The translations under genes were made by a program, and so were the position numbers. A stretch of DNA of 64,000 nucleotides from Escherichia phage FEC14. The stretch lies in the sequence record MG383452; one strand, written 5' to 3'. Below the pieces are notes generated by a model. The model was given only the letters and a program-made list of their open reading frames with translations, was not told the origin of the DNA and did not search any database. The number at the start of each line of letters is the position of its first letter. Within the stretch, counting starts at the first letter, position 1. This document shows positions 2,148 to 49,031 of the stretch, in pieces.

Positions 2148-2462
2148 TCATGACATATCCTCATAATTAGATAGATTGATCAAGAAGGGCAGGTTCCGGT
2201 CATATATGAGGTCAATGGCCTTGCGGCTACCCACAGCCTCACATGTCCAATAACTGTAATTCCCTGCGATCTTCAATGCTAGTCGGACGACATGACGCCT
2301 CATATTGTACTGAGCCAACTGATATCGGGCGCGTGTCTTCTTGCGCCAGCATTGATTCTCCGCTTTGTACTTGTAGAGGATCATCAGGCGAACGGCTTTG
2401 TACAGGCGCTTTTCAGCGCCCTTGGATTTCTTTGATACACGAATCAGGCTACCCATGATCAA
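2148..2462 (-). CDS. hypothetical basic protein (104 aa)
   Basis: Minus-strand ORF abutting gp46 stop; Lys/Arg-rich; no motif recognised. Confidence 0.35.
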   Translation of the reverse strand: MIMGSLIRVSKKSKGAEKRLYKAVRLMILYKYKAENQCWRKKTRARYQLAQYNMRRHVVRLALKIAGNYSYWTCEAVGSRKAIDLIYDRNLPFLINLSNYEDMS

Positions 2463-4792
2463 TCCTTCTTAATCACTTCGGTCATGCCATTACGCAGACC
2501 ATAACGAATGTTATGTTGGAAATATTCTTGGAACTCCTGTTCACGCTGACTGATGACAAACAGATTGTTCCCACCAAATTTATGTTTCAGCATCTCAACC
2601 GATTCTTGTACGCCACGCTCGCTCATGTTCTCAAGGATTTCATCTAACACAAACAGGTTACATTGCACCGACGCCTTGAGGTTGGCCACGTCCCGTAGGG
2701 CTAATGTCACAGCCAGATTGAGTCGGCTGCGTTGTCCTGTAGACAGGGAGAATATGCTTTGCCCTTTACGACCTGCAGCGCTCATGGTGATTTCAAATGT
2801 ATCATCAACAGCAATATCCAAGAACATATTGAGTGCTTCAAGATACTCGTTTATTTTACTATTGAGGAAAGGCAAATACAGGCTGATAATTCGAGCCTTG
2901 GTCTGATCATCTTTTAGGAAGAACAGAAGATGGTTCAGGTCTTGCAATTTCTCATCCAACTCTACGCGCCGCGCATTCAGATCTTCCATTAATGCCGTGA
3001 TGCGAGCGATCTCTCCTTCCAGGGCTTCAGTTGGTGTCGGCTTAACCGCCAATTTACGCTCTAAATCGGCAATGGATGCCTCTAGAGGGGCACGGCGTGA
3101 TTTCAGGCTGGTGAGTTTATCAGCCGTGTCGTTGATACTCTTAGAGAGCTGCTCACGCGCTTGACGGATTGACGTCGTGATATCTTCGTAACGGGTGTCT
3201 ACGGCCTTGAGGACGTCGTTAATTTTGGACTGTTGTTCCCGCTGTAAAGATGTTTTCTCAACAGCAGCGACATCATAGAATCCTTGGATGTCGCGTTTTA
3301 ATGTAGCGATCGCCGATTCCGCTTCTCGGATTTCATTGCGCAAAGCATCCAGTTCTTTGTCAATAACCGAAATCTGAGAAGATAATTCTGAATCTCTGAC
3401 ATTGTAATTCTCAATCAGGGAATTCACTTCTTCTAGGGCTGTATCAACCTGAAGAATCTTGTCAGTCAGTTCACTGATTTGTGGATAATATTGACTTTCA
3501 ATGCGTGATTTGGTATCGTCCGACACTAATTGCGTACACGTAGGGCAAGTGCCCATATCGTGGAAACGTTTGATGGCAGATTCATGTCCTTCCATTTCTG
3601 TTACGAATTTGATACGGAAGTTCTCACCCTGCTGACGCCGCGCTAATGCTTTGTTCAGTTCATCCAGGTTAGCATTCCGTTGGCTGACCAGATCATTTTT
3701 ACGTTCCGCGACTACCGCCATTCTCTCCCGAATTTCTTGTAATGAACGTTCGCCATCAGACACCTCGATACGTTCATAGTCTTCAGCCTTGGTATCAGCA
3801 TCATCCTGAACTGCTTGGATTTTGGCCGCATACTCTTCATTGATGGAATCGATATCCACCTTCATTTCAGCGTTCAGGCGATTACGGACTTCTGATAATT
3901 CAGTTTCTAATTTAGAATCTTGGGCACGGAATTCCGTCAGTTCGTCTTGAGAAGCACCAATATCTGAATTCAAACTATTCAGACGTTCCTTCTCTTGGAC
4001 AAGGATATCAGCAGATTGTTGCTGGATCATCGCATTGGAATTATTGATCTGTTCCAACTGCGCTTGCTGGCCTTTTAAATTTACATCATGAAAGGCGTAA
4101 TCATTGGTGACCGTCGTGAGTTCATTCGTTACTGTCTTGATAGATGCTTTTACATCTTCATTCATCAGACTGAAGAACCCCAAATCCCAGATTGTCTCTA
4201 CCATAGCGCGACGGTCGGCAGTGTACATTTCCGTGAATGGGATGAACTTCTCTTTGCCCAGAACCAGGGAGTTCTCAAACATCTTCTGGTCCACGCCAAT
4301 CAGGTTCACAATATATTTGTTCATGTCGGCTTTGGCCGCATCATTCACGACCTTCTTCCACTCACCGTCTACCATCTGATAGACTTCTACGAAATCAGGT
4401 TTGATACCACGACGGACTTTCCATTCACTTCCTCGAGTGGAGAACTCAACTTCACCCACGCATTCCTTTTTGTTTTGGGAATTGACTAATCCGGCTTTCT
4501 TTTCTTTCTTGCTGTATGTGTCATTATACAGAACGAAGAACAGCAGCCAGACAAGCATGGTGGATTTACCAGCGCCATTGTCATCGGATGTAACCAAGGT
4601 TGCCGAATTGCGTTGGTAATCAATTTCCATGAATTCATTACCGATAGAACGGAAGTTTTTAGCGCGACCGCGATGGAAAGTCAGTTTGTGGGTAATTTCC
4701 CCACGAATTTCAAATGGTACTTCAACAGAAACAGGAGTGTCCGCTTCTTTCAACAGCGAACCAAATTTTGATAATAGGTCTACATTGTTCAT
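2459..4792 (-). CDS. 46: recombination endonuclease ATPase subunit gp46 (Rad50/SbcC-like)
   Basis: Walker A GAGKST near N-terminus, long central coiled-coil, C-terminal LFVLDEILE...NLFVISQREQEF matching T4 gp46 C-terminus (LILDEVFD...VFIISHKD); immediately downstream of the gp47 gene as in T4. Confidence 0.9.
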   Translation of the reverse strand: MNNVDLLSKFGSLLKEADTPVSVEVPFEIRGEITHKLTFHRGRAKNFRSIGNEFMEIDYQRNSATLVTSDDNGAGKSTMLVWLLFFVLYNDTYSKKEKKAGLVNSQNKKECVGEVEFSTRGSEWKVRRGIKPDFVEVYQMVDGEWKKVVNDAAKADMNKYIVNLIGVDQKMFENSLVLGKEKFIPFTEMYTADRRAMVETIWDLGFFSLMNEDVKASIKTVTNELTTVTNDYAFHDVNLKGQQAQLEQINNSNAMIQQQSADILVQEKERLNSLNSDIGASQDELTEFRAQDSKLETELSEVRNRLNAEMKVDIDSINEEYAAKIQAVQDDADTKAEDYERIEVSDGERSLQEIRERMAVVAERKNDLVSQRNANLDELNKALARRQQGENFRIKFVTEMEGHESAIKRFHDMGTCPTCTQLVSDDTKSRIESQYYPQISELTDKILQVDTALEEVNSLIENYNVRDSELSSQISVIDKELDALRNEIREAESAIATLKRDIQGFYDVAAVEKTSLQREQQSKINDVLKAVDTRYEDITTSIRQAREQLSKSINDTADKLTSLKSRRAPLEASIADLERKLAVKPTPTEALEGEIARITALMEDLNARRVELDEKLQDLNHLLFFLKDDQTKARIISLYLPFLNSKINEYLEALNMFLDIAVDDTFEITMSAAGRKGQSIFSLSTGQRSRLNLAVTLALRDVANLKASVQCNLFVLDEILENMSERGVQESVEMLKHKFGGNNLFVISQREQEFQEYFQHNIRYGLRNGMTEVIKKD

Positions 4793-4794
4793 TA

Positions 4795-5910
4795 TTATGC
4801 ATCCAATGTGTTCAAACGTTGTTGGGCAGCATTATAAAATTGTTCTGCAAGTTTGCAAACATTTTCAGGGCGCTGGATATTGTTGGCTGCGCGGATATCA
4901 TTTTTCAAGACTTCTACAGCATCAGTAGCCACCATCTCTTCAGTGACTTCTACCTTCTCGGAAGCAACAGTAATCGTCCGATCGATGAAGTTGTAATCGA
5001 TGCATTTACAGCGCTTCAATGCGTCACAGAACTTTTCATAATGCTTGGCATTGTCACGGTTCTGTACAATCACCTTAACGATTTGCCCTTCAATACCCAA
5101 AACATTGTTTAACCAATCGGGGTCGATCCAATTACCTTCAGTATCAGAAGACATTTGTGTGTAGTCGTATTCCACGAACCGGAACAACGTTTGTTGTTCG
5201 TTGTTGGGGATAAACAATTCCCCGCCATTCATGTCGTCTACATAGAATCCTCGGTTCGTCCCGTCTTTGTGGTCTTCCCAGGTAAGATGATAAGGAGTCC
5301 CAATATACTGAATGTTACCTTCCATCGAACGGGTATGGAAATGTCCGGTATCCACGCGCTCGAATTTCGAAAGGAGCGCCAAGTCGATCTGACCTTTATC
5401 ACATACAGAGGACTGGTACATTTTGAACCCTGCCAACTCCAGATGCGCAAAACAGTACTTGGCGTCTGTATCTTGTATCGCTTTAATGGACGCATCATAG
5501 TTCTCTTTGTTAATCCACGGCAGTAGGAGGGTCTTGACACCTTCAATCATTACTTCAGTTGGTTCGCTGTAATAATGATAAACATCCGGTGCCAATTCAT
5601 TAAGATAAGAAGGCCAGTTAATGCGATTGGACTCTTCTAACGTGATATCATGGTTTCCAACGATGCCATTCCATTTGATACCCGCCTTTCTCAGGGCTGG
5701 CGTTAATTCATCTTTCAACCAATCTTTATCGCGACCATACATGAATTTGCGAACATCAAACGTATCACCAAATTGCCACACTTCTTTAATATCGGCGTCA
5801 ACCAATTCTGGAATAAAATAATTGATGAGATAATTCTTTATGAATTCTCGAACGTAACGGGAACCATTACGGCTCCCGATATGTAAATCGCCAATTTTAG
5901 CAATCGCCAT
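4795..5910 (-). CDS. 47: recombination nuclease subunit gp47 (Mre11/SbcD-like phosphoesterase)
   Basis: Phosphoesterase motifs GDLHIG, GDTFDVRK, VGNHD, GHFH align with T4 gp47 (GDWHLG, GDIFDVRK, VGNHD, GHFH). Confidence 0.9.
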   Translation of the reverse strand: MAIAKIGDLHIGSRNGSRYVREFIKNYLINYFIPELVDADIKEVWQFGDTFDVRKFMYGRDKDWLKDELTPALRKAGIKWNGIVGNHDITLEESNRINWPSYLNELAPDVYHYYSEPTEVMIEGVKTLLLPWINKENYDASIKAIQDTDAKYCFAHLELAGFKMYQSSVCDKGQIDLALLSKFERVDTGHFHTRSMEGNIQYIGTPYHLTWEDHKDGTNRGFYVDDMNGGELFIPNNEQQTLFRFVEYDYTQMSSDTEGNWIDPDWLNNVLGIEGQIVKVIVQNRDNAKHYEKFCDALKRCKCIDYNFIDRTITVASEKVEVTEEMVATDAVEVLKNDIRAANNIQRPENVCKLAEQFYNAAQQRLNTLDA

Positions 5911-6703
5911 TATTTTGTTGCTCCCGTTCTAATGCTCGTTTCTTTGCTTCTTCCCAATCTGGTTCCATAGAACATATTTCGTCTTCCAGATTGAATTGAG
6001 TAGAGCCGAAGTCATAGTCTGAATTATCTTCGGCGTCGGCGGTAATGGTATTTTCACTCTTTGTGAGACATTGAAGTATACCGCGAGGAATTTTCTTATT
6101 CTTTTCCTCTTCTTTGATGGCGATTTGCTTTTGGCGTTCCTTTTCGCGCTGTGCTTCTTTCTTAGTTTCAAAATTTCCGATACGCTCACGGAAGTCCATT
6201 GTTATACCAGTGCTGTCTACGAATGTCTGTTGCTGGAAGTCTGGGTCATCTGATAATGCAGCGAAACCACCTGCTTCTTCAAATGAACGCAACTTGATAT
6301 AATTGTGTTCTTCTTCACTGGTGAGTTTCTTGGCGAATGAACGATCGGCGCACATCGTTACCCAAGAGAAGAAATTGATTTTTCCTTTCTTGCCGATATG
6401 ACTGACGTCAAATGTATGGAGGTAACGAAGAATGTTAACAACGGCCTCACTGACCATGTCTTCGCGGTATGGATAATCACGATAGTTGTAGCGCATACTC
6501 ATGTTCTTAATAATCATCTGAACATTCATGGCCACATAATTGGGGATTCTTGGTAGGGGTGTTCCTTCGGCCAAAGCCTTTTTGCGAGCCGGAATCCAAT
6601 CTCTCAATATTCCAACAACACGGTCATTATCTTCGTCTGTGAAATATTTGGTGACGTTATCACCCCTGTCTACAAAATTCATACCCATCGTGATAATCCT
6701 CAA
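5897..6703 (-). CDS. 55: late-transcription sigma factor gp55-like, with extended charged C-terminal tail
   Basis: Central region (YNYRDY...LHTFD...FAKKLTSEEE) parallels T4 gp55 (FNFSGY...LHNFD...QRIKKERKE); sits directly upstream of gp47 as in T4 (55, alpha-gt, 47, 46). Confidence 0.55.
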   Translation of the reverse strand: MRIITMGMNFVDRGDNVTKYFTDEDNDRVVGILRDWIPARKKALAEGTPLPRIPNYVAMNVQMIIKNMSMRYNYRDYPYREDMVSEAVVNILRYLHTFDVSHIGKKGKINFFSWVTMCADRSFAKKLTSEEEHNYIKLRSFEEAGGFAALSDDPDFQQQTFVDSTGITMDFRERIGNFETKKEAQREKERQKQIAIKEEEKNKKIPRGILQCLTKSENTITADAEDNSDYDFGSTQFNLEDEICSMEPDWEEAKKRALEREQQNNGDC

Positions 6704-7242
6704 ATACCAATGAATTCATTGAAAGAACCAACGACTTTCTTGACCGAGAAACGGTTATTTTCAAGAACCATTGAACTATCTTCTTTGGCTCTAACGCTCC
6801 ACTGATCCGCAATTTCGTTGCCCATCGTTCCTGCATGACCTTTCACCCATTTTAATTCAAGTTCACAAATTGAACAAACTTTGTCATAATAATCGAACAA
6901 CTCGAGCAGAAGTTCTGTGTTCTTAGGCGGCATTCCTTCATATTCCCATTTACGACGCCACTCCAAAACGCTATTGATAACATATTGGCTGTCGGATATG
7001 ATGCGGGCTGGGGGAATGCAGCGTTCACCGCAATTAGAGAATTTCCATAGGATCTTCATTGCGTTTATAACCCCGAGTAACTCAGCTATATTGTTCGTTG
7101 ACGGCGGGGGTAAATACCCATAAAACACTTTCCATTGCTCTCCAGTGATTGGACTGATGGCAAATGCCCAACCAGCGGCTCGTGTCTTCTGAGGGGATGA
7201 TGCCCCGTCAGTGTATATTTCAATCATGTATAAGTATCCCAA
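6700..7242 (-). CDS. ribonuclease HI (bacterial RnhA-type)
   Basis: RNase H motifs IYTDGAS, NNIAEL, SDSQYVIN, VKGHAG..GNE.AD align with E. coli RnhA (IFTDGSC, NNRMEL, TDSQYV, VKGHAGHPENERCD). Confidence 0.8.
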   Translation of the reverse strand: MGYLYMIEIYTDGASSPQKTRAAGWAFAISPITGEQWKVFYGYLPPPSTNNIAELLGVINAMKILWKFSNCGERCIPPARIISDSQYVINSVLEWRRKWEYEGMPPKNTELLLELFDYYDKVCSICELELKWVKGHAGTMGNEIADQWSVRAKEDSSMVLENNRFSVKKVVGSFNEFIGI

Positions 7243-7269
7243 ACTGGTTTTATCGATGAGGAACGAATC

Positions 7270-8037
7270 ATGTCAGAACGCGCATATCGTTTCAGTCTGA
7301 CCGCCCCAGAAATTGAGCGTTTGCTCTTGTCTATAAATGATTCCATACAAAAGCTGGACATCATTTATGACTACACGGCGGGTGGGACTGAAGGTCAAGT
7401 CGCAGCTGCGTCAGCTGTCAAAAACATGTGGCTAAAACTTAATGAGATGGTCACAGGTGAAGGTCTTAAAGACGCAATCAATGCAGCTAACGACAGCAAC
7501 GTATTCACCGATTATTATAAGTCTATTTTAGATCGCGAAACTTGGAAATTTATTGGTTCTCCGGCAGATTTATTAGCAAGGGACGATATAGACACTTCCA
7601 ATTTTGAAGGCGGTGAAGTAATCCTCCTACAAAAGAACGCTTCGGGCAACCCAGAATTCCAATACTGGAAAAGAACTCCTGTGGCAGGAGGTGATCCAAT
7701 ATTTGGTTGGGAATCTGTTTATGAAGGAAACTCCAACGACTCTTCTATTGATATTCCGGTTGTTGGGACCAGCATACTGAAGACAATCCCAAAAGCATTG
7801 TTTCATATGGTCGAATTCAGAGTACACGCTCGAGAGTCTACCCTCGGTCATTGGCAGGACACTGATGGCAAAATCGGTTATCGTGGTGAAGATCTGATTT
7901 ATAGCCTGTATAATCATGTTCAAACCAAACCGATCGCAAATATATCTTTCAGCCAAGATGTGGACAATATGATTATCACGATAACGACACTTGAACCAAA
8001 TATCAAGTGCCATTTATCGTTTATTGCGGGTTATTAA
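7270..8037 (+). CDS. hypothetical protein (255 aa), one of the few plus-strand genes
   Basis: Long plus-strand ORF in the gap between two minus-strand genes, GAGGAA RBS before ATG; stop overlaps the DinG stop convergently. Confidence 0.5.
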   Translation: MSERAYRFSLTAPEIERLLLSINDSIQKLDIIYDYTAGGTEGQVAAASAVKNMWLKLNEMVTGEGLKDAINAANDSNVFTDYYKSILDRETWKFIGSPADLLARDDIDTSNFEGGEVILLQKNASGNPEFQYWKRTPVAGGDPIFGWESVYEGNSNDSSIDIPVVGTSILKTIPKALFHMVEFRVHARESTLGHWQDTDGKIGYRGEDLIYSLYNHVQTKPIANISFSQDVDNMIITITTLEPNIKCHLSFIAGY

Positions 8038-9755
8038 ACCTCAAACACTGCATCGGTGAACCAGGTTGGGAAGAATTCTGGGTTGCGCATCATAAGAGAT
8101 TCAAAGGATGAATCAATGATGTATGTCGCAGCCCAGTCATCAACACCCCTGACCGAACGCCCACACATTTGAACAATGCGCAGTACTGCATTGCGGAAAT
8201 ATGCCGACGGATCCACTGAATTGATATGTGCTATCAGTGGATCGCCCAGATAATCATAAGGGACTTTGATCAGTATTTGGAAACGGCTGTAATCCCCTTT
8301 GAAATCATAACCTTCTTCCATAGCCGGACTGGCAATGACGCATGGGGACTTTGTTCTAAAAGCATTTTCCATAATATCCATCAACGCCTTTCGGGTGCGC
8401 GGAACATGGATAAAATTCTGATATTTACTGAATTTTTGTATTGCCAAGGCGCGATCATAACTCACTGTATGGATAATGCCGGACTGACCTGGGTGGAACG
8501 CGATTATTTCATCAATATATTCCGTCAACCTTTTCATTTCATAGTCGCCCATATTGTTAGTCATCTTCACTATGGGCATATAGTTGACTTTTCTGTTTTC
8601 AATTGGGATAGGGTTGCCGATCTGAATGGAATGATAATCCCCCTGTCGAATACCCAATGAACGAGCATAAGAATCTATGCCGCAGATCGTTGCTGACATA
8701 TGAACGTGATAATCGGCTTTTCGGAATAACCCGAATTCGCTTACATCAGAAGGCATAACAGGTTTAAACCGGATAAAATCTTCCCCCTTTTCTTGCACAA
8801 TAAATGTACTTGCTTGGGTTTGTGACATAATACCGCAATAATCACTCAAGTTATGCAAGACATCTATAATGTCTGCGAGTTTCATCACTTGGCTTTCACT
8901 CAAGCGATCATCTTCGACCAATTCTTCAAGAACTTCCAACAAATTTTCTACTTTGAGATGGAGGTCTTCAAACATTGAATGTAGTTCACCAGACAAAGAA
9001 TATAACTTGCCCAGGACATAGTCCTTGGTGCGTTCTACGATATCACCAATGGTAGAGACGATCTCCTTGCCCTCAGGGATAGAACGCAGCCCCTCCACGG
9101 CCTTTGTATTGTATTCCATGATCGTGTGCTCTAGGAGCGTAGAGGGCATTTTATGGCACTCGTCAAGGATCAGCATATCGGAACGGTTTTCGGGCTTCAT
9201 GCAGATGGTTGTACACATTTCGATCATCATGGCAGCATTAGTACAACGCAATGATGAAATATCCGTCCACAAATTACGCGCCTGTACATAAGGACAGCGG
9301 CGTTTGCTACAATGCCCGTCACGGCATGCTATACGGCATTGGACAGCATTGTAATACACATCTGGATGTACGTGGCAACGATAGTTCTTCTTGCCTTTTA
9401 GGATGTCTATCGCCACCGCCTTTTCAGCAGCATACTGATCTTGCAGACCTTTGGTCGGGGTGCTGATAGAAGTGCGAAATTGCCCATAAGGATCAGCCTG
9501 TAAAACTAGATGGCGAATCACTTTATGAATGGTAGTGCCAATCAAAGATTTACCGACACCTGTCGGAGCTTCAATGATGACATGTTTAACCTTTTTGTTG
9601 ATAAGCGCATCTATGGCTTCGACGATGCATTCCATCTGGCCTGGGTTCGCTTTGTCATATGGGAATTCATCTTTGGTAAGGCGTTGTATTTCTTCCACAG
9701 GAACCTTACGGCCTATGGCGTCAATCGCCTTTCGGTGTTGATTAAATGCTGTCAC
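8034..9755 (-). CDS. DinG/XPD-family (Rad3-like) DNA helicase with Fe-S cluster cysteines
   Basis: Walker A APTGVGKS, DEAH box LILDECH, four-Cys cluster (CHVH...CRIACRDGHCSKRRCPY) typical of Fe-S helicases; AGGAGGAA RBS. Confidence 0.8.
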   Translation of the reverse strand: MTAFNQHRKAIDAIGRKVPVEEIQRLTKDEFPYDKANPGQMECIVEAIDALINKKVKHVIIEAPTGVGKSLIGTTIHKVIRHLVLQADPYGQFRTSISTPTKGLQDQYAAEKAVAIDILKGKKNYRCHVHPDVYYNAVQCRIACRDGHCSKRRCPYVQARNLWTDISSLRCTNAAMMIEMCTTICMKPENRSDMLILDECHKMPSTLLEHTIMEYNTKAVEGLRSIPEGKEIVSTIGDIVERTKDYVLGKLYSLSGELHSMFEDLHLKVENLLEVLEELVEDDRLSESQVMKLADIIDVLHNLSDYCGIMSQTQASTFIVQEKGEDFIRFKPVMPSDVSEFGLFRKADYHVHMSATICGIDSYARSLGIRQGDYHSIQIGNPIPIENRKVNYMPIVKMTNNMGDYEMKRLTEYIDEIIAFHPGQSGIIHTVSYDRALAIQKFSKYQNFIHVPRTRKALMDIMENAFRTKSPCVIASPAMEEGYDFKGDYSRFQILIKVPYDYLGDPLIAHINSVDPSAYFRNAVLRIVQMCGRSVRGVDDWAATYIIDSSFESLMMRNPEFFPTWFTDAVFEV

Positions 9756-9890: not shown

Positions 9891-10169
9891 TTACTGGCCG
9901 TTGGCAGCAGCTTTCAGACCTTCACCGACTTTGAATTTAACTACATTTTTCGCTTCGATCTGGATCTGTTGTCCGTTCAGCGGGTTGCGGCCAGTGCGCG
10001 CTTCCTGATGTTTAACTTCGAACGCGCCGAAGCCTACGAATTGGACAGATTGGCCAGCCGCGACTGCAGTTTTCACGCCATTGATAAAAGATGCAACGAT
10101 TTTCTCAGCTTCGCCTTTGGTCATACCCTGGGTTTGAGCGATGTGAGCGATAAAATCAGTACGGTTCAT
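9891..10169 (-). CDS. HU/IHF-family DNA-binding protein
   Basis: From internal Met (MNRTDFIAHIAQ...) aligns end to end with E. coli HU incl. FVGFGAFEV and RTGRNPLNG arm motif; track ORF has a 12-aa N-terminal extension judged spurious. Confidence 0.8.
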   Translation of the reverse strand: MNRTDFIAHIAQTQGMTKGEAEKIVASFINGVKTAVAAGQSVQFVGFGAFEVKHQEARTGRNPLNGQQIQIEAKNVVKFKVGEGLKAAANGQ

Positions 10170-10252
10170 TCGGATTACTCCAGTTAGTTGTTTACGATGT
10201 TTCACTACAAGAGGACTACAGCTTACCTAACAAATACTATTGAATAAAGCGT

Positions 10253-11047
10253 TTATTTGCCGACGTTTAGCATTTTACTTGAGCCTGAACCATCAACAAT
10301 CAGAGTACATTTCCCGCTGTTGGCGCAAGATTGCAACACCATGTTATATTCGTGTTGTAAATATTCAGGTGTCAGAGATGTCGTCAGTTTCTGATTCGCC
10401 CTGGCTTCTTGGTCTCGAATTTCAACGTTCTTTCTTGCTGTATCCAAACGTTTGTCGGCCATGACATTATCACGGATAGATTGCTCAATCGAAGGATCTG
10501 TCAGCGCCTTTTTGACCAACACGCGTGTGATTGTGAACATGCCAGGTGCAGCTGTTTCTAATTGCTGCTGGGTGCGTTCCTTGATCATCTTTTCTAACTC
10601 AGCCCGTTGGGTGTGAATTGTCATAGAATCCAAAGAGGAAACGGCGTCCATCGTTGAGGATGCTGCGGCGGTTTTAACCAGGTTGAATCCCACCGCTATC
10701 GTGCCGTCACCGAGTTCAGCGCTCTGACCTGCAAATTTGGTATGGAACCAAGGAACCTTCGCGACGTTCGGTGTGTAATAAACGTCCACATCCAGATCTT
10801 CCAAGGTCAGGTTGTCTTTGGCCTTTGGCGTCATTTTCGTCAGACTCACAACGGCTTCTTTGGTCGTGTAAACATCCACGCTTGAAACAAAGCTGGTGTA
10901 GATCCCCGCTGTTACAGGGTTCATGTCTACTTCACCCCATTGGGTGCGAACGCCGACATTACCTTCATCGATAACGCCACCACAACCAGAAAGTAGACTT
11001 GCAGCCAGAACCATAATTGCACCAAACACCAATTTCTTGAACATCAA
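10253..11047 (-). CDS. lipoprotein (264 aa), possible SPFH/band-7-like
   Basis: Signal peptide with lipobox LLSGC read in translation; downstream fold assignment is a guess. Confidence 0.55.
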   Translation of the reverse strand: MMFKKLVFGAIMVLAASLLSGCGGVIDEGNVGVRTQWGEVDMNPVTAGIYTSFVSSVDVYTTKEAVVSLTKMTPKAKDNLTLEDLDVDVYYTPNVAKVPWFHTKFAGQSAELGDGTIAVGFNLVKTAAASSTMDAVSSLDSMTIHTQRAELEKMIKERTQQQLETAAPGMFTITRVLVKKALTDPSIEQSIRDNVMADKRLDTARKNVEIRDQEARANQKLTTSLTPEYLQHEYNMVLQSCANSGKCTLIVDGSGSSKMLNVGK

Positions 11048-11262
11048 TGTACCCCTTCAAAAATGTAGATATATGCACCCAATGTGAGTGCAGTTATTGT
11101 AACCGAAGAAATCAGCAGTAGGAAAGTTACTCTCACCCGTTTGCGCCAACGTTTACTTCGGTAGATTTTAGTCTCTTTCAAGTATTTGAAAAAGAAAAAT
11201 AAAATGAATGTTGAAATTACGAATATGAACAGATAACGGATTAACCCGATCATATTTCCCAC
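11044..11262 (-). CDS. small membrane protein (72 aa, two predicted TM segments)
   Basis: Two hydrophobic stretches separated by a basic loop (KRWRKRVR); overlaps lipoprotein start. Confidence 0.4.
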   Translation of the reverse strand: MGNMIGLIRYLFIFVISTFILFFFFKYLKETKIYRSKRWRKRVRVTFLLLISSVTITALTLGAYIYIFEGVH

Positions 11263-11570
11263 CCTGTGCTACGCAGATGATCAAAATAATCGTTGAGTTC
11301 GTCAATATCTTCGATATCAACCCAACGATCATCCAGACCCATATCATTTAGATCTTCTTCAGTCAGATCATGTTGGTATATTTGAACGCCGGAAGCATTA
11401 CAATAATCCGGCTTGATGTTATTGTTATACTGAAACAGGTCGTAATCAGCCAGAGTATTCTTCAGGCGCTGCGCTTCTTCAAATGTTGGAACCTCAACAT
11501 GAAAAGCGATCCCAGGAACCTGGGGAATATGCCAAACGCGAAATTTAAGTTCAAACGGTTTATTCGACAT
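11250..11570 (-). CDS. hypothetical acidic protein (106 aa)
   Basis: Minus-strand ORF in co-oriented array. Confidence 0.4.
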   Translation of the reverse strand: MSNKPFELKFRVWHIPQVPGIAFHVEVPTFEEAQRLKNTLADYDLFQYNNNIKPDYCNASGVQIYQHDLTEEDLNDMGLDDRWVDIEDIDELNDYFDHLRSTGWEI

Positions 11571-11889
11571 GGGGTTCTCCCTGAGACAGTATGGTTTTCA
11601 TCTGTTCACGCGTGATAATTGTTTCAACAAGATTCTCGTCAATCATCATTTCGTTTAACAGTTCACAACCCAGCACGTGTGGTCGCGCCATATACGGCAT
11701 CGTGTTGAGTTTTTCTTCTATGTCAAGAACGCGCTTGACAGTCAGACCCATAGAAGAAAAGGGAACAGGATAAAAGAATGAAATGATCTGATTATCCATC
11801 CCGTTTGAAAATCTTACCAACAATACATCACACCATACGCCGGACATATTACACCTCCAGACGGTTACAATGAGAAAGCGCGTTATCAA
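11560..11889 (-). CDS. hypothetical protein (109 aa)
   Basis: Minus-strand ORF in co-oriented array. Confidence 0.35.
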   Translation of the reverse strand: MITRFLIVTVWRCNMSGVWCDVLLVRFSNGMDNQIISFFYPVPFSSMGLTVKRVLDIEEKLNTMPYMARPHVLGCELLNEMMIDENLVETIITREQMKTILSQGEPHVE

Positions 11890-12538
11890 TCTGTTCCCGA
11901 GACAGATATTCCAACGGGTTGCGAGAATACGCGTCTAACAGCAGCAGTTGGAGCACAGCGCGATTACGAGTTTCACTCTCCATCATGATACCGTTCATAT
12001 GTGGTGAACGGGCTGTCCATACAACATACTGACCTAAATCGTCGTTGGCAGTCAGGCTAATGCGAAACTGATTACACAATTTGTCGATTAACGCATAATC
12101 ATATGTGAACGTCCCTTCAGTTTTCCAGCTTGATTTCTTCACCTGAAGAGCTTCACCACGAGTTCTGAATTCTAACGTCACTCCATGAGTTTCATTGTCG
12201 AAATGAACAACTCTCTGAGTTTCATTTTTCAGAGTCCGGTTCATATTATGTACGAAGAAACGGGCGTCGATCTCCCTATTGCTCATGGAATTAAAATCGA
12301 TCGGCCAAAAACGAGCGCGCATAATCGCGCCTTCTGGCAATACAATTAGTCCATTTTCACGGGAGACATAGCAAAGACGTTTAACTGCAGGGTCAGGATG
12401 TTCCACACAATAAACGGAAATTCCAGTGGGAAGGATAGCGTGGGCGACAACACCAGATCTTTCAAAATATAAATTACCCTGGTCAGCCCCGATGATAATA
12501 CGGCTCTTGTTGTTCATAATACGGCTCTTGTTGTTCAT
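11849..12538 (-). CDS. hypothetical protein (229 aa) with duplicated N-terminus MNNKSRI-MNNKSRI
   Basis: ORF begins inside a perfect 21-bp tandem duplication that includes the ATG. Confidence 0.5.
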   Translation of the reverse strand: MNNKSRIMNNKSRIIIGADQGNLYFERSGVVAHAILPTGISVYCVEHPDPAVKRLCYVSRENGLIVLPEGAIMRARFWPIDFNSMSNREIDARFFVHNMNRTLKNETQRVVHFDNETHGVTLEFRTRGEALQVKKSSWKTEGTFTYDYALIDKLCNQFRISLTANDDLGQYVVWTARSPHMNGIMMESETRNRAVLQLLLLDAYSRNPLEYLSREQIDNALSHCNRLEV

Positions 12539-12541
12539 AAT
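12495..12541. repeat. perfect 21-bp tandem duplication (2 copies plus partial) spanning the start codon of the 11849..12538 gene
   Basis: ATAATACGGCTCTTGTTGTTC repeated head-to-tail, read directly. Confidence 0.7.
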
Positions 12542-12560
12542 ATAGATCTCTCAAATAAAA

Positions 12561-12581
12561 GGCGGTTTAATAATAACCGCC
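12561..12581 (-). terminator. hairpin GGCGGTT-loop-AACCGCC followed by U-run on minus strand
   Basis: 3' of the 12596..13390 ORF. Confidence 0.45.
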
Positions 12582-12595
12582 CTAATGTTATTGAA

Positions 12596-13390
12596 TTATT
12601 TTATATCACCGACATACATGTTCAAACTTTCATCCCATTCTAAACGAACACGAATAGTGCCAGAATCGTTTGGGAAAGACAATTTGTCGCACATATGACG
12701 ATTTGCATATGTTCCGCTCTTATTAACAGGATAATCTTTACCTTCACCGATTGCGAATCGTTTGAAGTTCCGACTCACCATCATATTGATGTTAGGCCAC
12801 TGCAATTGTTCCCGTAGGGTTTTGCACAATATAATCTTCCCATTAGACCGGAAAGACACGAATAAATCATTTGGTGAAGAAAATCGCCTTTCTTGCGGGC
12901 ATAATTGCCTGATTGAAATAAATTCAGATTCTTCTTTATTCTCAACTGGAGACTTCACGGGTTCTTCTTTTCGTTTTTCTGCATATTGCTCAACAGCCTT
13001 TTGGCTGACAGGCGGCAGATCAATAGAAGGGGAGATGACTGCGGGCTTAACGACTGGTGAAGTACGAGCAGCAACAAGTTTTTCCTGAGCTTCCAGAATT
13101 CTCTCTTGGCGAGATTTTGGTCGAGTATCAACCTTGGAGCTGAAATCACAAACCGTAACCCAATCACCCTGATCATTGCGCTTGGCAACCAGAGTCAGTT
13201 TATAGATGATGCCCTGCAGCTTGCTTTCGCGCATAGTGTCTGCGAACCAGAAAGCACAACCCTGCTCGAACTTTTCAGCGAAGATGACGCGTCCGTCTTC
13301 GTGAATCAGAATGACCTTTGCTTTGTTGGGCGCGAACATCTTATTCTTTTCAATGATCGATTCGGCGATCTTTTTGGTAATAATCATCAC
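12596..13390 (-). CDS. hypothetical protein (264 aa)
   Basis: Long minus-strand ORF; no motif recognised. Confidence 0.5.
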   Translation of the reverse strand: MMIITKKIAESIIEKNKMFAPNKAKVILIHEDGRVIFAEKFEQGCAFWFADTMRESKLQGIIYKLTLVAKRNDQGDWVTVCDFSSKVDTRPKSRQERILEAQEKLVAARTSPVVKPAVISPSIDLPPVSQKAVEQYAEKRKEEPVKSPVENKEESEFISIRQLCPQERRFSSPNDLFVSFRSNGKIILCKTLREQLQWPNINMMVSRNFKRFAIGEGKDYPVNKSGTYANRHMCDKLSFPNDSGTIRVRLEWDESLNMYVGDIK

Positions 13391-13437
13391 GAAGTATTTC
13401 CTTTCAGTTCAATGGAAGTTAAATTTTAACCTGAAAA

Positions 13438-13758
13438 TTATCTTTGATTTCCAACGAAATTAGTCGCTATTTCCCGACACATAGTCAGATCTTTGATCGT
13501 CTGTTTGCTATTGTCGGCAGCGGACTCCATCATTGGCAAATCCAAAGCATTCTCTATTTGATCCACGCTGTAGAGATCAAGGCGTTTCAACTCACCTTCA
13601 TAATCTGATAAAAGGATGGATGTATCTTTATCATCAGGGTGAAATTGTTGATAAGTAGACAACCAGGCCGCACACATATTCAATTTGCTAGCCGGAGTTG
13701 CCACAACTTGGAATGATGCCAACATAGAAAAGAATAACAAGAATATTATGTTTCTCAT
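13438..13758 (-). CDS. small secreted protein (106 aa, signal peptide)
   Basis: N-terminal MRNIIFLLFFSMLASFQVVA signal-like sequence. Confidence 0.5.
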   Translation of the reverse strand: MRNIIFLLFFSMLASFQVVATPASKLNMCAAWLSTYQQFHPDDKDTSILLSDYEGELKRLDLYSVDQIENALDLPMMESAADNSKQTIKDLTMCREIATNFVGNQR

Positions 13759-14444
13759 CTTTCGTTCTCCTTCATCATATTATCACAGTCAATTCTTGTT
13801 TGCTTGAGTTCACGGGCAAGCCTGGGATCATCAAGATTGACAGACAAATTAGTGGAAAGATCTTTCAAACCATTCTGAACACGGTCTTCATAATAATGAT
13901 CATTTTCCACCAGCCATGCTCTCAGGCCAAGGGCGCGAGTCCGCCATTCCTTTTTCAAACGTCGATCTGATTCTTGATCAGCACTGTATTCAAATACTCG
14001 GATACATTGGTTGCCATCATTGATGAGATCCAGCTGACGTCGGCCAACCTGCACACCTTTTTGTAATGCTGGAGAAGGAAGAGAACGGCACTGTCTTACG
14101 GTCATTCGTCCTTGTGTGCCCATACGACCAGTCATGATGAGATCGCCAGCCTCCATGCCTCCTCGATTAAATTCTTTGTCGTTCATATATCCTTTCAGGT
14201 TGAACGCGCCTTGCTTATATCGATTAAACTCAATACCAGCATTTACAACGGCATCTGTGACATTACCTGTGGCCCAGAGTTCAGCAAAGTTCTCTATGGA
14301 ACCAGTTTTGTCTATAGCGACGGCTTGGGAGAACCCAGCACAGTAGGAAAGATCAGACCACAGTTTTTCACCTGTGGAGTTCAGCTTGGCGGTGGCAGGA
14401 AGTGCCAGACCAGCCAGCACAACCCCGATGATTAAACGTTTCAT
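13755..14444 (-). CDS. secreted protein (about 229 aa from internal Met MKRLIIGVVLAGLALPATA)
   Basis: Signal peptide begins at internal Met preceded by GGAGA RBS; track ORF 13755..14609 has a 55-aa extension that overlaps the upstream gene. Confidence 0.5.
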   Translation of the reverse strand: MKRLIIGVVLAGLALPATAKLNSTGEKLWSDLSYCAGFSQAVAIDKTGSIENFAELWATGNVTDAVVNAGIEFNRYKQGAFNLKGYMNDKEFNRGGMEAGDLIMTGRMGTQGRMTVRQCRSLPSPALQKGVQVGRRQLDLINDGNQCIRVFEYSADQESDRRLKKEWRTRALGLRAWLVENDHYYEDRVQNGLKDLSTNLSVNLDDPRLARELKQTRIDCDNMMKENER

Positions 14445-14523
14445 GGTGATTCTCCTTATTTCATTGGATAAAATGATAGGGCTGTCACCATGTTGAGTAA
14501 AGGGTTTCAATAAACTATCGTAT

Positions 14524-14973
14524 TCAGAAACGGGTATCGCTGACCGTTCTGTATCGCACACCCTGAAACTGTTTAGCGAGTTTAACAAATTCCATCGCTG
14601 GCAAATCAACTTTGTAGACCTTCATGCGCTGTTTGCCGTCCATGTTCAACGCAGCGACAAATCGGTGAGACCCGTCAACAACGTAATTGTCAGAAGACAC
14701 CCAAACTCGACCCATGGGCTTCTTATTTCTGATCTGCTTCATAATCTTCCAGACCTTCATTTTATTGATTTCGTTCTGGGTAAGACGAAGCATTTTGATG
14801 GGCACTTGCGCAGCATCTATGGACACGCCGTTGTCTTCAAGATATTTGTGAAAATCTTCTTGTTTGTCGGCATCGATTTGCGGCATAGAAGAACGAGAAA
14901 GCCCGAGGTTCCCAACAGGAATCCTCAGGCCATTTATGATATTCATCCAGTCAATAAAGGATGTAAGGAACAT
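14524..14973 (-). CDS. hypothetical protein (149 aa)
   Basis: Minus-strand ORF. Confidence 0.45.
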   Translation of the reverse strand: MFLTSFIDWMNIINGLRIPVGNLGLSRSSMPQIDADKQEDFHKYLEDNGVSIDAAQVPIKMLRLTQNEINKMKVWKIMKQIRNKKPMGRVWVSSDNYVVDGSHRFVAALNMDGKQRMKVYKVDLPAMEFVKLAKQFQGVRYRTVSDTRF

Positions 14974-15010
14974 GACACACCTCGGGATATAGGGTTATCC
15001 CTTAGTTAGT

Positions 15011-47669: not shown

Positions 47670-48336
47670 CGTCTTCTTCCTTCACATCAACTGTTTCACC
47701 ATCAATGATTTCATCTTCTGGTTGTTGTGCGGCCTTTGCTTGTGCTCTTTCTTCAGCGCGGCGGCGTGCATCTTCGATCGTCTTCAATAAATCGCGAGAA
47801 GATCGCGCCTTTTTCCCAACCGATACTGTTGTTGTTCCGTCTGGTGAAGTTGTAACATCCACTGTCGTGTCATCAACAGGTGGTTCTTTATCACCTGTTA
47901 CTGCCTTGATGGTTTTCTGGTTTTCCATCAAGTCTTTATTCAGACCTCGCATGAGTTCACCCAATTCACGGAAAACAGAAAATGCTCGCGGAGCTTCTGT
48001 GGATGCAGCCAATTTAGCGGCTTGTCCCATCATGAACATTGTGGCTTCTTGCATGGCATATGTTGTGTCGCGTATCCGTTTGTAATCCGTTGTAGCATCA
48101 GTGTCCGCAAACTCAGGTACTTTGGATTCCTTGGAAGCAATATCCTCCAATGAAGGCGGTTCAGGAATCGGCTGATACCCTTCCGGACGTTCACCAAACC
48201 ATTCACCTGTATTTTCATCGAAGTCAATACCTGGACGAGGGGCGACAGCCTCCATTGCCTCCTTCCCAACTTCGTCTCGGGCAGTCACCGCATCAAGTGT
48301 GGCGAGTAACCTTTCTGACATATTGCTCATGATCAA
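47650..48336 (-). CDS. 16: small terminase subunit gp16
   Basis: Located immediately upstream of and overlapping gp17; central region resembles T4 gp16. Confidence 0.65.
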   Translation of the reverse strand: MIMSNMSERLLATLDAVTARDEVGKEAMEAVAPRPGIDFDENTGEWFGERPEGYQPIPEPPSLEDIASKESKVPEFADTDATTDYKRIRDTTYAMQEATMFMMGQAAKLAASTEAPRAFSVFRELGELMRGLNKDLMENQKTIKAVTGDKEPPVDDTTVDVTTSPDGTTTVSVGKKARSSRDLLKTIEDARRRAEERAQAKAAQQPEDEIIDGETVDVKEEDDGVSEA

Positions 48337-49031
48337 TCCTCCGGATGATGTATGCCGTCTTTATCAACTCGGAACCATTCAGGAAGTTCCGACCATGGCA
48401 TGTTCAAATCATTAGACATTTCAATAATTATCTCTTTGATGACGTTTGGATCCCCACCGCCCGAACCATCATCAACCCAATAATCTTCTCCATAGATGTG
48501 ACCATGTAATTGAAAATTGAATGAACAATCTATGTGTGGTGATTCTGTTGCGTCTCCTTCCCAGTTGTCAGAAATCGTGTGATTTACCAACATTATCTTC
48601 ACGTTCTGATCTTGAGATAAAGTGTCGTTGTCCTTTATCTGACAGTCAACAGAAGGAGTGAACACAGAATAAATTTGTTCCAACACCTGTAGCATTTCGA
48701 CCAGTTTCTTCGTTCTGATGTTATATTCAAAATCTATAATGATCGGAATTCGTTGTTTGGACCGCGCAGTTGCAGTCGATATCTGATTATGATACGACTT
48801 GGTCACCTGTTTATTGATTTCGAACTGACCAAAGGACATTGTTGCAAATGGCAGCATATTGGCTGGCACGTTCCTGTTGAGGTCATTACGGCGGCCAATG
48901 GCCATATGCAGCGGGATTTCCATCAAGCCACGTTCGGTTTTGACTTTTAAATCCGACATGATAGCGTTGAAAACATGGATATATTTCAACAACGATTCAT
49001 GGTAGAAATATTTTTCAAATGGTCTGGCCAT
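48333..49031 (-). CDS. 15: tail sheath stabiliser / tail completion protein gp15
   Basis: N-terminal region parallels T4 gp15; position between gp14 and gp16. Confidence 0.6.
   Translation of the reverse strand: MARPFEKYFYHESLLKYIHVFNAIMSDLKVKTERGLMEIPLHMAIGRRNDLNRNVPANMLPFATMSFGQFEINKQVTKSYHNQISTATARSKQRIPIIIDFEYNIRTKKLVEMLQVLEQIYSVFTPSVDCQIKDNDTLSQDQNVKIMLVNHTISDNWEGDATESPHIDCSFNFQLHGHIYGEDYWVDDGSGGGDPNVIKEIIIEMSNDLNMPWSELPEWFRVDKDGIHHPED

Follow-up and report, generated by a model that had tools for sequence, protein, structure and literature searches.

Several described systems resemble parts of the locus analyzed here. The spanins lambda Rz/Rz1 and T4 PseT.3/PseT.2 are encoded by adjacent overlapping genes, the larger one first, and both products reach the periplasm, one a coiled coil and the other an unstructured lipoprotein. 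Spanins are poorly conserved. T4 Spackle (gp61.3) acts in the periplasm, inhibits the gp5 tail lysozyme and binds a strongly basic patch on gp5. It has a Sec signal and a small helical bundle of 75 aa, with a disulfide (Cys29-Cys81) joining the N- and C-terminal parts, and its gene lies among replication genes. T4 Imm is a small inner-membrane immunity protein with two TM segments, and the receptor-masking phage proteins T5 Llp and Cor, both small lipoproteins of the outer membrane, bind FhuA. In the SPFH operons, HflK/C-FtsH and stomatin/QmcA/YqiK-NfeD, a Band_7 domain is found with an adjoining membrane anchor (a TM helix or hairpin) and a coiled-coil segment, and a small membrane-protein gene is coupled in the same operon. 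HflK/C face the periplasm.

The window, a 64,000-nucleotide stretch of Escherichia phage FEC14 (MG383452), belongs to Kuttervirus, a genus of Salmonella/E. coli phages, and is 99.3% identical to phage FrontPhageNews. The initial annotation described one cluster of four exported or membrane proteins in it. All four ORFs are present on the minus strand where they had been placed (Table 1), and their export signals were borne out by hydropathy, n/h/c-region anatomy and conservation of the -3/-1 residues in 25-37 homologue clusters. The single cluster gave way to two separable pairs with different phylogenetic distributions: pair A (sec229 and sec106) and pair B (TM2 and an SPFH lipoprotein). The genes are translationally coupled within each pair, and the conservation of each pair across genera shows that this coupling is not due to chance. 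Between the pairs are four cytoplasmic genes and a terminator-like hairpin (dG -14 kcal/mol, z = -3.5; none of 200 shuffles folded equally well), which separates the pair-A unit from the unit ending in pair B. No hydrophobic segment with a Kyte-Doolittle value ≥ 1.6 was found in the three intervening genes nearest pair A. The fourth, a homologue of P22 gp17, is coupled to TM2, its stop overlapping the TM2 start. P22 gp17 is annotated as "superinfection exclusion" and is, according to the literature, actually an anti-exclusion factor. Pair B adjoins this gene inside a variable region.

Table 1. Features of the locus in window coordinates (all on the minus strand).
Feature	Position	Strand	Remarks
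Weak sigma-70-like promoter match	14473..14501	-	TTTACT-17-TATCAT; 29 nt upstream of sec229 start
sec229	13755..14444	-	229-aa precursor; predicted Sec signal peptide; pair A, first gene
sec106	13438..13758	-	106-aa precursor; predicted signal peptide cut at VVA↓TP; pair A, second gene
Three intervening genes	11560..13390	-	without export signals
264-aa protein gene	12596-13390	-	intervening, cytoplasmic
Terminator-like hairpin	12559..12583	-	9-bp GC-rich stem then UUUUAUUU; 3' of the 264-aa cytoplasmic gene
229-aa protein gene ("ImpD" in some records)	11849-12538	-	intervening, cytoplasmic; distinct from sec229
DUF7425 gene	11560-11847	-	intervening, cytoplasmic
P22 gp17 homologue	11250..11570	-	cytoplasmic; PF17420 E = 1e-49; phrog_1510
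TM2	11044..11253	-	two-TM hairpin membrane protein, 69 aa; pair B, first gene
SPFH/Band-7 lipoprotein	10253..11044	-	263-aa precursor; PF01145 and lipobox LSGC; pair B, second gene

The promoter match upstream of sec229 is a hint only, since the scan gave 18 such matches against 12.5 ± 3.8 expected from shuffles, which is no enrichment. A search for a transcriptome bearing on expression timing found none.

The adjacent signal-peptide proteins of 106 and about 229 aa proved to be as described, with the sec229 stop overlapping the sec106 start (ATGA). sec229 starts at an ATG behind an AAGGAG site, with the N-terminus MKRLIIGVVLAGLALPATA↓KLN. Upstream starts give a 284-aa program-listed ORF and the 251-aa version annotated in FrontPhageNews, and either would bury the signal peptide. 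The signal consists of an MKR n-region, a 12-residue hydrophobic core and the c-region P-A-T-A↓K. In 25 clusters A17 and A19 are invariant, and P16 and K20 nearly so; distant relatives have clear cleavage sites (AWS↓E and ASA↓A). The uncharged stretch of the leader is 16-17 residues long in 24 of the 25 clusters, and this Gly/Ala-rich leader could escape cleavage and act as a releasable (SAR-type) anchor. The predicted mature form of ~210 aa has four conserved cysteines (35, 119, 147 and 220). Its AF2 model is poor (pLDDT 49), with residues 137-229 alone confident and helical. sec106 has the N-terminus MRNIIFLLFFSMLASFQVVA↓TPASK and a cleavage site, A-x-A↓xP, conserved in 37 clusters. The predicted mature form is ~86 aa with a pI of 4.5 and invariant Cys29 and Cys94, and it is modeled confidently as a five-helix bundle (pLDDT 81.5) with no significant fold neighbor except its own orthologue. 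The conserved signal-peptidase-I sites and paired cysteines suggest that sec229 and sec106 are probably soluble periplasmic proteins.

Pair A was found in every enterobacterial Ackermannviridae genus examined and is a core gene pair of these phages. The two genes sit side by side and overlap in Kuttervirus, Agtrevirus, Limestonevirus, Taipeivirus, Miltonvirus, Nezavisimistyvirus and two metagenomic lineages, and sec106 is always partnered by a 229-aa (or 134-165-aa) protein. Across genera sec229 is 83-90% identical, as strongly conserved as the replication helicase (83-85%; HU, 78-86%), and only 9 relatives were found among 1.84 billion representatives. Exclusion genes are not usually conserved to this degree, and an essential role in lysis or assembly would fit as well. 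In public records sec229 is labeled "hypothetical" or "putative i-spanin", and sec106 "Rz-like spanin", "putative lipoprotein" or "o-spanin".

The initial annotation was right about the lipobox of the pair B lipoprotein and about the two hydrophobic segments of its partner; the lengths it gave, 264 and 72 aa, become 263 and 69 aa when counted from ATG. The lipoprotein ATG at 11044 is preceded by a GAAGGGG ribosome-binding site, and the longer count uses a TTG one codon upstream (10253-11047). The longer count for TM2 starts at a GTG; the 69-aa form matches the PhaxI annotation. The N-terminus of the lipoprotein is MFKKLVFGAIMVLAASLLSGC↓GG, with the lipobox LSGC placing the cysteine at residue 21. 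The function had been called not assignable, and indeed no homology fixes the role of any of the proteins; the lipoprotein, however, is clearly an SPFH/Band-7 protein with a conserved small partner (PF01145, E = 1.3e-12, 48.6 bits against a cut-off of 23.6). It belongs to phrog_200, labeled "lipoprotein". Its SPFH domain (243 aa) begins two residues past the lipidated cysteine, and a coiled-coil stretch, a C-terminal CANSGKC motif and a TLIVDG strand are also present. The C-terminal strand aligns weakly with stomatin NSTIVF and resembles its oligomerization motif. The lipobox and the C-terminal CxxxxxC co-occur (41:11 versus 4:2 among 58 clusters; Fisher p = 4e-7), and distant TM-anchored bacterial relatives have neither the Cys pair nor the small partner. 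The lipoprotein is made, since its peptides were detected by mass spectrometry in phage Sajous1.

TM2 has two hydrophobic 19-mers (Kyte-Doolittle 2.4 and 2.0) on either side of a very basic loop, KYLKETKIYRSKRWRKRVR. The strongly basic loop is therefore predicted to be cytoplasmic and both ends periplasmic. TM2 had no match in any Pfam, PHROG-function or PADLOC family. Its stop overlaps the lipoprotein start (TGATG). A small gene lies directly upstream of the SPFH lipoprotein in 10/10 contexts of the lipoprotein clade; the product was translated in nine of these and was a two-TM protein each time, with 57-70-aa genes in the nine other contexts equivalent to TM2. Some of these contexts are unrelated phage-like contigs that encode RNA ligase, RNase T or rIIB. 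Pair B is missing from most Ackermannviridae (Ag3, RC-2014 and Magnus do not have it at this locus) and is lost in some Kutterviruses; in phage kage a remnant is left. Pair B is an accessory, horizontally mobile module. Like the SPFH operons, it couples a Band_7 protein, with its adjoining anchor and coiled coil, to a small membrane protein. Unlike them, it is phage-encoded, its anchor is a lipobox, it has a periplasmic CxxxxxC, and the TM2-type partner is a small hairpin with no OB-fold or protease domain as in NfeD.

In the proposed mechanism, sec229 and sec106 would be exported by Sec, cleaved by signal peptidase I and probably fold as disulfide-bonded soluble periplasmic proteins. The lipid-anchored SPFH protein would sit right at the periplasmic face of a membrane and, like other SPFH proteins, would probably oligomerize into a ring or cage. 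TM2, in the inner membrane with both ends periplasmic, may be a client that is enclosed by this assembly or nucleates it. Both pairs may exclude further phages or protect against envelope-directed host or prophage functions.

Pair A might instead disrupt the outer membrane, as a two-component spanin or a non-canonical version of one, which is how Marshall, PHROG 3843 and several GenBank records have it; we consider this rather unlikely. The pair has the gene arrangement of the "separated" spanins, among which Kongari et al. list the Marshall pair in the survey from which the spanin label derives, it is core to the family, and Agtrevirus/Marshall-type sec106 has a lipobox-like LMAGC. The endolysin has no neighboring lysis genes, no outer-membrane disruption function has been identified in the family, and a scan of the window and the rest of PhaxI turned up neither another convincing spanin pair nor another convincing small lipoprotein. 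The spanin label fails its defining tests, however: sec229 has a short core followed by a conserved P-A-x-A↓K, with textbook cleavage sites in distant homologues, and no N-terminal TMD, and sec106 has no lipobox in the window copy or in 30-31 of 37 clusters. The lipobox-like subgroup comprises 6-7 clusters, with AGC in six; its cysteine precedes the conserved VNA↓ cleavage site by four residues, and P0035 carries AGS there, with Ser in place of Cys. Where spanins have a coiled coil and an unstructured lipoprotein, the mature pair A proteins are predicted to be folded, Cys-stapled helical domains (1.4-3.5% Pro), and the cross-genus identity of sec229 is above that expected for spanins. The tables of Kongari et al. 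themselves show the Marshall pair as a singleton that has zero coiled coil and exceeds all others in periplasmic length, and list PhaxI, CBA120, ECML-4, Vi01, SFP10, Maynard, AG3 and RC-2014 as spanin-less. Pair A is not a canonical spanin, database labels notwithstanding. It is unlikely, too, that sec106, possibly with sec229, is a Spackle-like early periplasmic inhibitor of the tail-tip cell-wall hydrolase of superinfecting phages of the same family. sec106 shares its build with Spackle, a cleaved signal and a compact helical bundle with one disulfide (predicted as Cys29-Cys94 in sec106); the acidic mature sec106 would suit a basic target patch, its gene is also set among replication genes, and the high conservation across hosts would be expected if the target is phage-encoded and itself conserved. 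Yet sec106 matched no PDB chain in sequence, Spackle included, and showed no detectable fold relationship and no PHROG or Pfam link; it is always partnered, and in place of the T4-type lysozyme domain bound by Spackle the Kuttervirus gp5 homologue carries a CHAP domain.

For pair B, a periplasm-facing phage SPFH assembly could mimic or disturb host HflK/C-FtsH and so alter FtsH access to membrane substrates. Family membership, the orientation with the anchor directly before the SPFH domain, a weak N-terminal similarity to HflC and the automated name of homologues, "regulator of protease activity HflC", agree with this, but the similarity to HflC/HflK is marginal (E = 0.06-0.4; solved SPFH proteins, E ≥ 0.06), the conserved phage-encoded partner suggests a self-contained module, and the analysis found no link to FtsH, making this reading quite doubtful. 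That TM2 is a holin, pinholin or other lysis-timing protein restrained by an SPFH cage is extremely improbable, even though its size and two TM segments are holin-like and no holin has been identified in Kutterviruses. TM2 cannot be an essential holin since pair B is not universal in Ackermannviridae or Kutterviruses, no holin family matched it, and its predicted topology, without a charged C-terminal tail, is unlike a class II holin. Class II holins are N-in/C-in. Finally, all four proteins might form one system, the intervening Kuttervirus genes being later insertions. A metagenomic relative (L024) carries the four genes contiguously, as sec229-sec106-TM2-SPFH, and Erwinia phage Bue1 has only two small ORFs between the pairs; a functional link between pairs A and B is therefore possible. 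A single system is nevertheless very unlikely: Agtrevirus, Limestonevirus, Taipeivirus, Miltonvirus and a second metagenomic lineage (L025) have pair A without pair B at the locus, five unrelated phage-like contexts have pair B but no pair-A-like gene pair among the genes called within 3.5-4 kb, pair B has been lost from some Kutterviruses, and the hairpin separates the pairs in the window. The proximity of the pairs to each other is only marginally beyond chance: when 5-7 exported genes were placed among ~77 genes in a simulation, the probability that 4 of them fell within 10 genes was P ~0.02-0.1, and the independent events are two, not four.

The initial annotation named T4 Imm and Sp as the classic case of such proteins; none of the four proteins is related to T4 Imm, Sp or RI in sequence or fold. 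TM2 resembles Imm in being small with two predicted TM segments, but it has no Imm-family match and is always coupled to the SPFH lipoprotein. The latter, like Llp and Cor, is a phage-encoded lipoprotein made in the infected cell, but it has an SPFH scaffold domain and no similarity to them was found. Superinfection exclusion or envelope protection would be the most plausible class of role for the four proteins; sec106 is Spackle-like in build, and TM2 is Imm-like in size and build. By the defining criteria, the public "i-spanin" and "Rz-like spanin" labels on pair A are wrong. We see an even chance that this virulent Kuttervirus carries two independent coupled envelope gene pairs that guard or modify the envelope of the infected cell, and do not serve lysis.

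The four exported or membrane proteins proposed in the initial annotation are all encoded as open reading frames, and two of them changed in length on closer analysis. The first protein, sec229, does begin at the ATG at 14444, with AAGGAG upstream, and has the expected length; longer forms in some records use upstream starts that would bury the signal. Mechanical calling yields an open reading frame 55 codons longer that reaches into the preceding gene, and the FrontPhageNews form is 251 aa. The lipoprotein has its lipobox (LSGC, Cys21) and is 263 rather than 264 aa, most plausibly starting at the ATG at 11044 behind a GAAGGGG ribosome-binding site. The small protein, TM2, has the two hydrophobic segments claimed for it and is 69 rather than 72 aa from the ATG at 11253. 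PhaxI and FrontPhageNews also differ in the start annotated for the HU-like gene downstream (279 and 315 nt).

The four genes form two overlapping pairs. In pair A the stop of sec229 and the start of sec106 share an ATGA, and in pair B the stop of TM2 and the start of the lipoprotein share a TGATG. The public labels for pair A are "hypothetical" or "putative i-spanin" (sec229) and "Rz-like spanin", "putative lipoprotein" or "o-spanin" (sec106); for pair B they are "hypothetical" (TM2) and "lipoprotein" or "SPFH domain band 7 family protein". Across bases 10000-15000 there are matches in 274 phage records, the closest being Salmonella phage FrontPhageNews (99.3%), Escherichia phage PhaxI (98.9%) and CBA120 (98.2%), all of the genus Kuttervirus in the family Ackermannviridae. 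All genes of the region lie on the minus strand, collinear with PhaxI gp107-gp098. Pseudomonas phage Pa-sanjiao (MN871475) and Enterococcus phage Efm 3-10 (OR844945, 7.9 kb) show 97-99% identity to Kuttervirus here; these records are probably mislabelled or contaminant. Sigma-70-like matches in the window are not above expectation, TATAAATA occurs only twice in the 64 kb, at chance level, and a literature search found no transcriptome paper.

Coordinates of the genes and signals discussed, in the window or in the named phage or fetched comparison locus (L-numbers)
Feature	Sequence	Position	Strand	Product
149-aa gene, 5' of pair A	window	14524-14973	-	149 aa
sec229 (pair A)	window	13755-14444	-	229 aa
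sec229, mechanical open reading frame	window	13755-14609	-	
sec229/sec106 overlap	window	13755-13758	-	
sec106 (pair A)	window	13438-13758	-	106 aa
Terminator-like hairpin	window	12583-12559		
P22 gp17 homologue	window	11250-11570	-	
TM2 (pair B)	window	11044-11253	-	69 aa
SPFH lipoprotein (pair B)	window	10253-11044	-	263 aa
HU-like gene	window	9891-10205	-	
PhaxI gp049 counterpart	window	50717-51058	-	113 aa
gp5-like baseplate hub protein	PhaxI (L010)	47060-48685		
Endolysin	PhaxI (L013)	54984-55778		
LysM-domain protein	Guerrero (L007)	2187-2504		~104 aa
LysM-domain protein	Magnus (L005)	7458-7772		~104 aa
LysM-domain protein	kage (L009)	2645-2953		~104 aa
P22 gp17 homologue	Bue1 (L008)	5718-6191		~155 aa
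P22 gp17 homologue	KNP4 (L006)	6993-7457		~155 aa
TM2-SPFH module and neighbours	metagenomic (L016)	2862-8270		

The initial annotation had treated the four genes as one cluster, which does not hold for the window. The pairs are separated by four cytoplasmic genes, none with a hydrophobic segment, and by a terminator-like hairpin (dG -14 kcal/mol, z = -3.5). That they nevertheless make up one linked system is very unlikely. The four genes are contiguous in one metagenomic relative (L024) and nearly so in Erwinia phage Bue1, but pair A occurs without pair B in five lineages, and five unrelated phage-like contexts have pair B with nothing similar to pair A among the called genes within 3.5-4 kb. 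The co-location of the pairs reads as shared real estate. The stretch from sec106 to the HU gene is evidently a variable slot that collects accessory genes, among them the gp17-like gene, a LysM gene (Guerrero, Magnus and kage) and pair B. The LysM-domain protein has no signal peptide, lies between the gp17-like gene and TM2 or HU in some relatives, and is called "endolysin" in some records. It is absent from the window and present in relatives, and the locus upstream of the HU gene is therefore a hot spot for accessory genes. The gp17-like gene (PF17420, E = 1e-49) is carried here by a strictly virulent phage, and its stop overlaps the start of TM2, to which it is translationally coupled; the homologues in Bue1 and Serratia phage KNP4 have an extra C-terminal domain. 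The database label for the homologue is "superinfection exclusion", although P22 gp17 has been described as counteracting a prophage exclusion system.

Spanins disrupt the outer membrane as a pair, a TMD-anchored i-spanin and a lipoprotein o-spanin. Judged from the sequence, the label "Rz-like spanin / i-spanin" on pair A fails these defining criteria because sec229 has a predicted signal peptide, not a TMD, and sec106 is without a lipobox here. sec229 lacks the N-terminal TMD of a type II inner-membrane protein. Its leader consists of MKR, a 12-residue hydrophobic core and P-A-x-A before K, with A17 and A19 invariant in 25 clusters of homologues and an uncharged stretch of 16-17 residues in 24 of them. 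The distant homologues P0126 and P0127 have classical cleavage sites (AWS/E and ASA/A, the slash marking cleavage), as do the counterparts in KNP4 and Bue1. The sec229 AF2 model is confident only at residues 137-229, a helical bundle, the N-terminal 136 residues having a pLDDT below 50; Kongari et al. give the orthologue of phage Marshall 0 coiled-coil residues and 35% helix. sec106 in the window (MLASFQVVA/TP) has neither a lipobox nor a lipidated Cys, its first Cys (C29) lying in KLNMC eight residues past the hydrophobic region. A lipobox-like AGC is found in only 6-7 of 37 sec106 clusters, where the Cys precedes the conserved VNA/ cleavage site by four residues, and cluster P0035, a close relative, has AGS in its place. 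An alignment of homologue N-termini shows a switch between non-lipobox forms and the lipobox-like LIAGC, with a Cys/Ser toggle at one position, and in several other homologues position -2 or -3 relative to the cleavage site is Cys. Such variation probably leads automated pipelines to call lipoproteins falsely.

Marshall, which has the AGC variant, appears to be where the label began, and it is cited in the i-spanin note of the kage record. Kongari et al. (2018) classed the Marshall pair as a "separated" spanin, but it is a singleton in both of their tables and has the longest periplasmic length of their data set (300 residues) with zero coiled coil. They list as spanin-less PhaxI, CBA120, ECML-4, Vi01, SFP10, SJ2, SJ3, Maynard, AG3 and RC-2014. 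An outer-membrane disruption system, either the spanin as annotated or a non-canonical version, is an unlikely identity for pair A. The genes do overlap with the would-be i-spanin gene first, and the pair is kept in all lineages examined; a literature search found no experimental report of outer-membrane disruption or lambda Rz/Rz1 complementation by pair A. A lipobox scan of the window and of PhaxI 1-63 kb and 125-157 kb returned only the SPFH lipoprotein and a few out-of-frame open reading frames, with no other credible small lipoprotein. The PhaxI endolysin (PG_binding_1 plus N-acetylmuramidase) lacks a signal peptide, and neither a holin nor a spanin gene adjoins its gene. A non-canonical lysis role is kept in view because the label fails, the scan gave no other lipoprotein candidate and the endolysin is without lysis neighbours. 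In that role sec229 and sec106, soluble or as releasable SAR-type periplasmic proteins without spanin membrane anchors, would supply the "spanin-less" Ackermannviridae with their missing system for outer-membrane disruption or lysis control, a proposal we consider very unlikely. A 60-aa open reading frame overlapping PhaxI gp159/gp160 was rejected as a spanin candidate, gp159 having no TMD. The 113-aa counterpart of PhaxI gp049 has one N-terminal TM (~residues 15-35) followed by a heptad-rich helical region, and looks more i-spanin-like in architecture than sec229; its gene sits between neck and virion genes with no lipoprotein gene nearby.

Pair A is family-restricted with no known relative. 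A tblastn search gave 276 phage records for sec106 and 272 for sec229, all of them Ackermannviridae of Enterobacterales, and an exhaustive HMMER scan of 1.84 billion representatives gave only nine relatives of sec229, all phage-like. Ag3, RC-2014, Magnus, KNP4, Bue1 and two metagenomic contigs all have the two genes side by side with an overlap, 3' of the ParB-like 149-aa gene. The first gene of KNP4 and Bue1 is limited to the N-terminal domain (134 and 165 aa). The identity of sec229 is 90% with its Ag3 counterpart and 83% with that of Magnus, equalling or topping the helicase (83/85%) and HU (86/78%), and the cytoplasmic genes flanking it fall to 35-60%. The 149-aa gene, always 5' of the pair, is 84-93% conserved across genera, has weak similarity to a ParB-like nuclease domain (phrog_1033, E = 0.0016) and aligns with the central part of a far longer PHROG profile (phrog_2859, positions 316-467 of 740).

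The four Cys of sec229 are all conserved, as are the A-x-A/xP site, Cys29 and Cys94 of sec106 across its 37 clusters. Mature sec106 is predicted to be acidic (86 aa, pI 4.5), and its AlphaFold model is a confident five-helix bundle (pLDDT 81.5). No meaningful neighbour of either protein was found in the PDB or among viral models, nor any meaningful match of their profiles to PDB sequences. For sec229 the best Foldseek E against the PDB was 2 or above; the query model is poor over the N-terminal 136 residues and this result is therefore uninformative. The idea that the three Cys-flanked segments of sec106 and sec229 are repeats of one domain was dropped, a profile comparison of the two giving a probability of 9%.

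The lipoprotein of pair B carries a Band_7 domain (PF01145, E = 1.3e-12, 48.6 bits against a cut-off of 23.6) at residues 25-209 and is a member of PHROG 200, "lipoprotein". Of the protein's 58 homologue clusters, which reach down to 34% identity, 57 have a precomputed PF01145 match. Lipobox Cys21 is followed by two residues and then the conserved GVIDxGNVGVRT strand, and in distant relatives that lack a lipobox an N-terminal TM helix takes this position. Beginning two residues past the lipid Cys, the SPFH domain would lie flat against the membrane like SPFH domains elsewhere. Over residues 147-250 there is a weak alignment with the C-terminal region of stomatin, in which CTLIV pairs with NSTIVF (E = 0.06-0.1). 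Lipobox and a C-terminal CxxxxxC occur together in 41 clusters, neither in 11, the lipobox only in 4 and the motif only in 2 (Fisher p = 4e-7, kinship among clusters ignored), which would fit a periplasmic disulfide. Directly after the lipid Cys most members have G and about ten have F, and S, A, N, T and Q do not occur there; G and F at this position can reportedly act as inner-membrane retention signals. Among deposited phages the protein is found in ~168 Kuttervirus records at at least 95% identity, at ~53% in Erwinia phages, and elsewhere only as faint relatives. Its peptides were detected by mass spectrometry in preparations of phage Sajous1. Pair B is absent at the equivalent locus of Ag3, RC-2014 and Magnus, and no more than the last 66 codons survive in kage and, apparently, in STP55 and STP07, which makes the pair dispensable. 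Nothing functional on phage SPFH proteins was found in the literature, which describes one HflK/C-like virulence factor of a Pasteurella prophage, at most a possible relative.

TM2, found in 155 records, has nine Lys/Arg between its hydrophobic segments, so that by the positive-inside rule the loop is predicted to be cytoplasmic and both ends periplasmic. A 57-70-aa gene stands immediately upstream of the SPFH gene, usually overlapping it, in all ten lipoprotein-clade contexts examined. Besides the window these are Guerrero, Bue1, a phage-like contig from an assembly of Burkholderia gladioli and six metagenomic lineages in which the neighbouring genes are RNA ligase, RNase T, rIIB or Ackermannviridae ones. 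All nine partner products translated are two-TM hairpins with a basic loop. The one lipobox-less relative whose context was examined lies among bacterial metabolic genes and has no small partner. Among seven TM2 homologues, no match to NfeD (PF01957) or another family at E ≤ 1 rose above chance level. Like the stomatin-type SPFH-NfeD operons, pair B joins an SPFH protein to an operon partner, but here the protein is lipid-anchored, periplasmic and phage-borne, and its hairpin partner is not NfeD. In an unrelated metagenomic phage-like lineage (L016 and L017) an rIIB-like gene directly precedes the TM2-SPFH module. After the module come a gene for a protein with a TM and a coiled coil and, 3 kb further, one of the Bax-inhibitor-1 (YccA-like) family. 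YccA is a substrate and modulator of FtsH, and this neighbourhood may be meaningful for the module.

Comparison with known exclusion and lysis proteins gave no homologue. None of the four proteins has a Pfam or PHROG match to T4 Imm, holins or the RI antiholin, no sequence or fold homology of sec106 or sec229 to T4 Spackle (gp61.3) was found, and seven proteins of the region have no match to PADLOC anti-phage defence profiles at E ≤ 0.1.

The explanation that we propose is composite, two independent coupled envelope pairs with roles in guarding or modifying the envelope, and its probability stands at an even balance; its anatomy and its negative results stand on much firmer ground than the proposed function. 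In pair B, the SPFH lipoprotein would form oligomers on the periplasmic side of a membrane, TM2 serving as client or nucleator, and create a shielded membrane patch. The inner membrane is the more likely location because TM2 is a predicted inner-membrane protein and the distant relatives are TM-anchored. The role would most plausibly be exclusion or protection against envelope-directed attack, since pair B is accessory, recurrently lost and adjoins an anti-exclusion gene. Pair A would provide two soluble, disulfide-stabilised periplasmic proteins acting on an Enterobacterales-wide target or a conserved phage component. The most concrete version would be a Spackle-like inhibition of the tail-tip hydrolase, though the Kuttervirus gp5 homologue, with an OB domain, has a CHAP domain rather than a T4-type lysozyme domain, as seen in the PhaxI hub protein.

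A new mechanism is not shown for either pair; the result is a corrected annotation and two experimental targets. The spanin label stands on hundreds of Ackermannviridae records and misleads users of automated annotation. Its failure bears on how biocontrol and therapy phages in wide use, such as Vi01, CBA120, PhaxI and their relatives, breach the outer membrane. The lipid-anchored SPFH protein with its two-TM partner is a compact, recurrent phage module that could be a handle on periplasm-side SPFH cages. If either pair does confer exclusion, it would matter for the design of cocktails that contain Kuttervirus phages.
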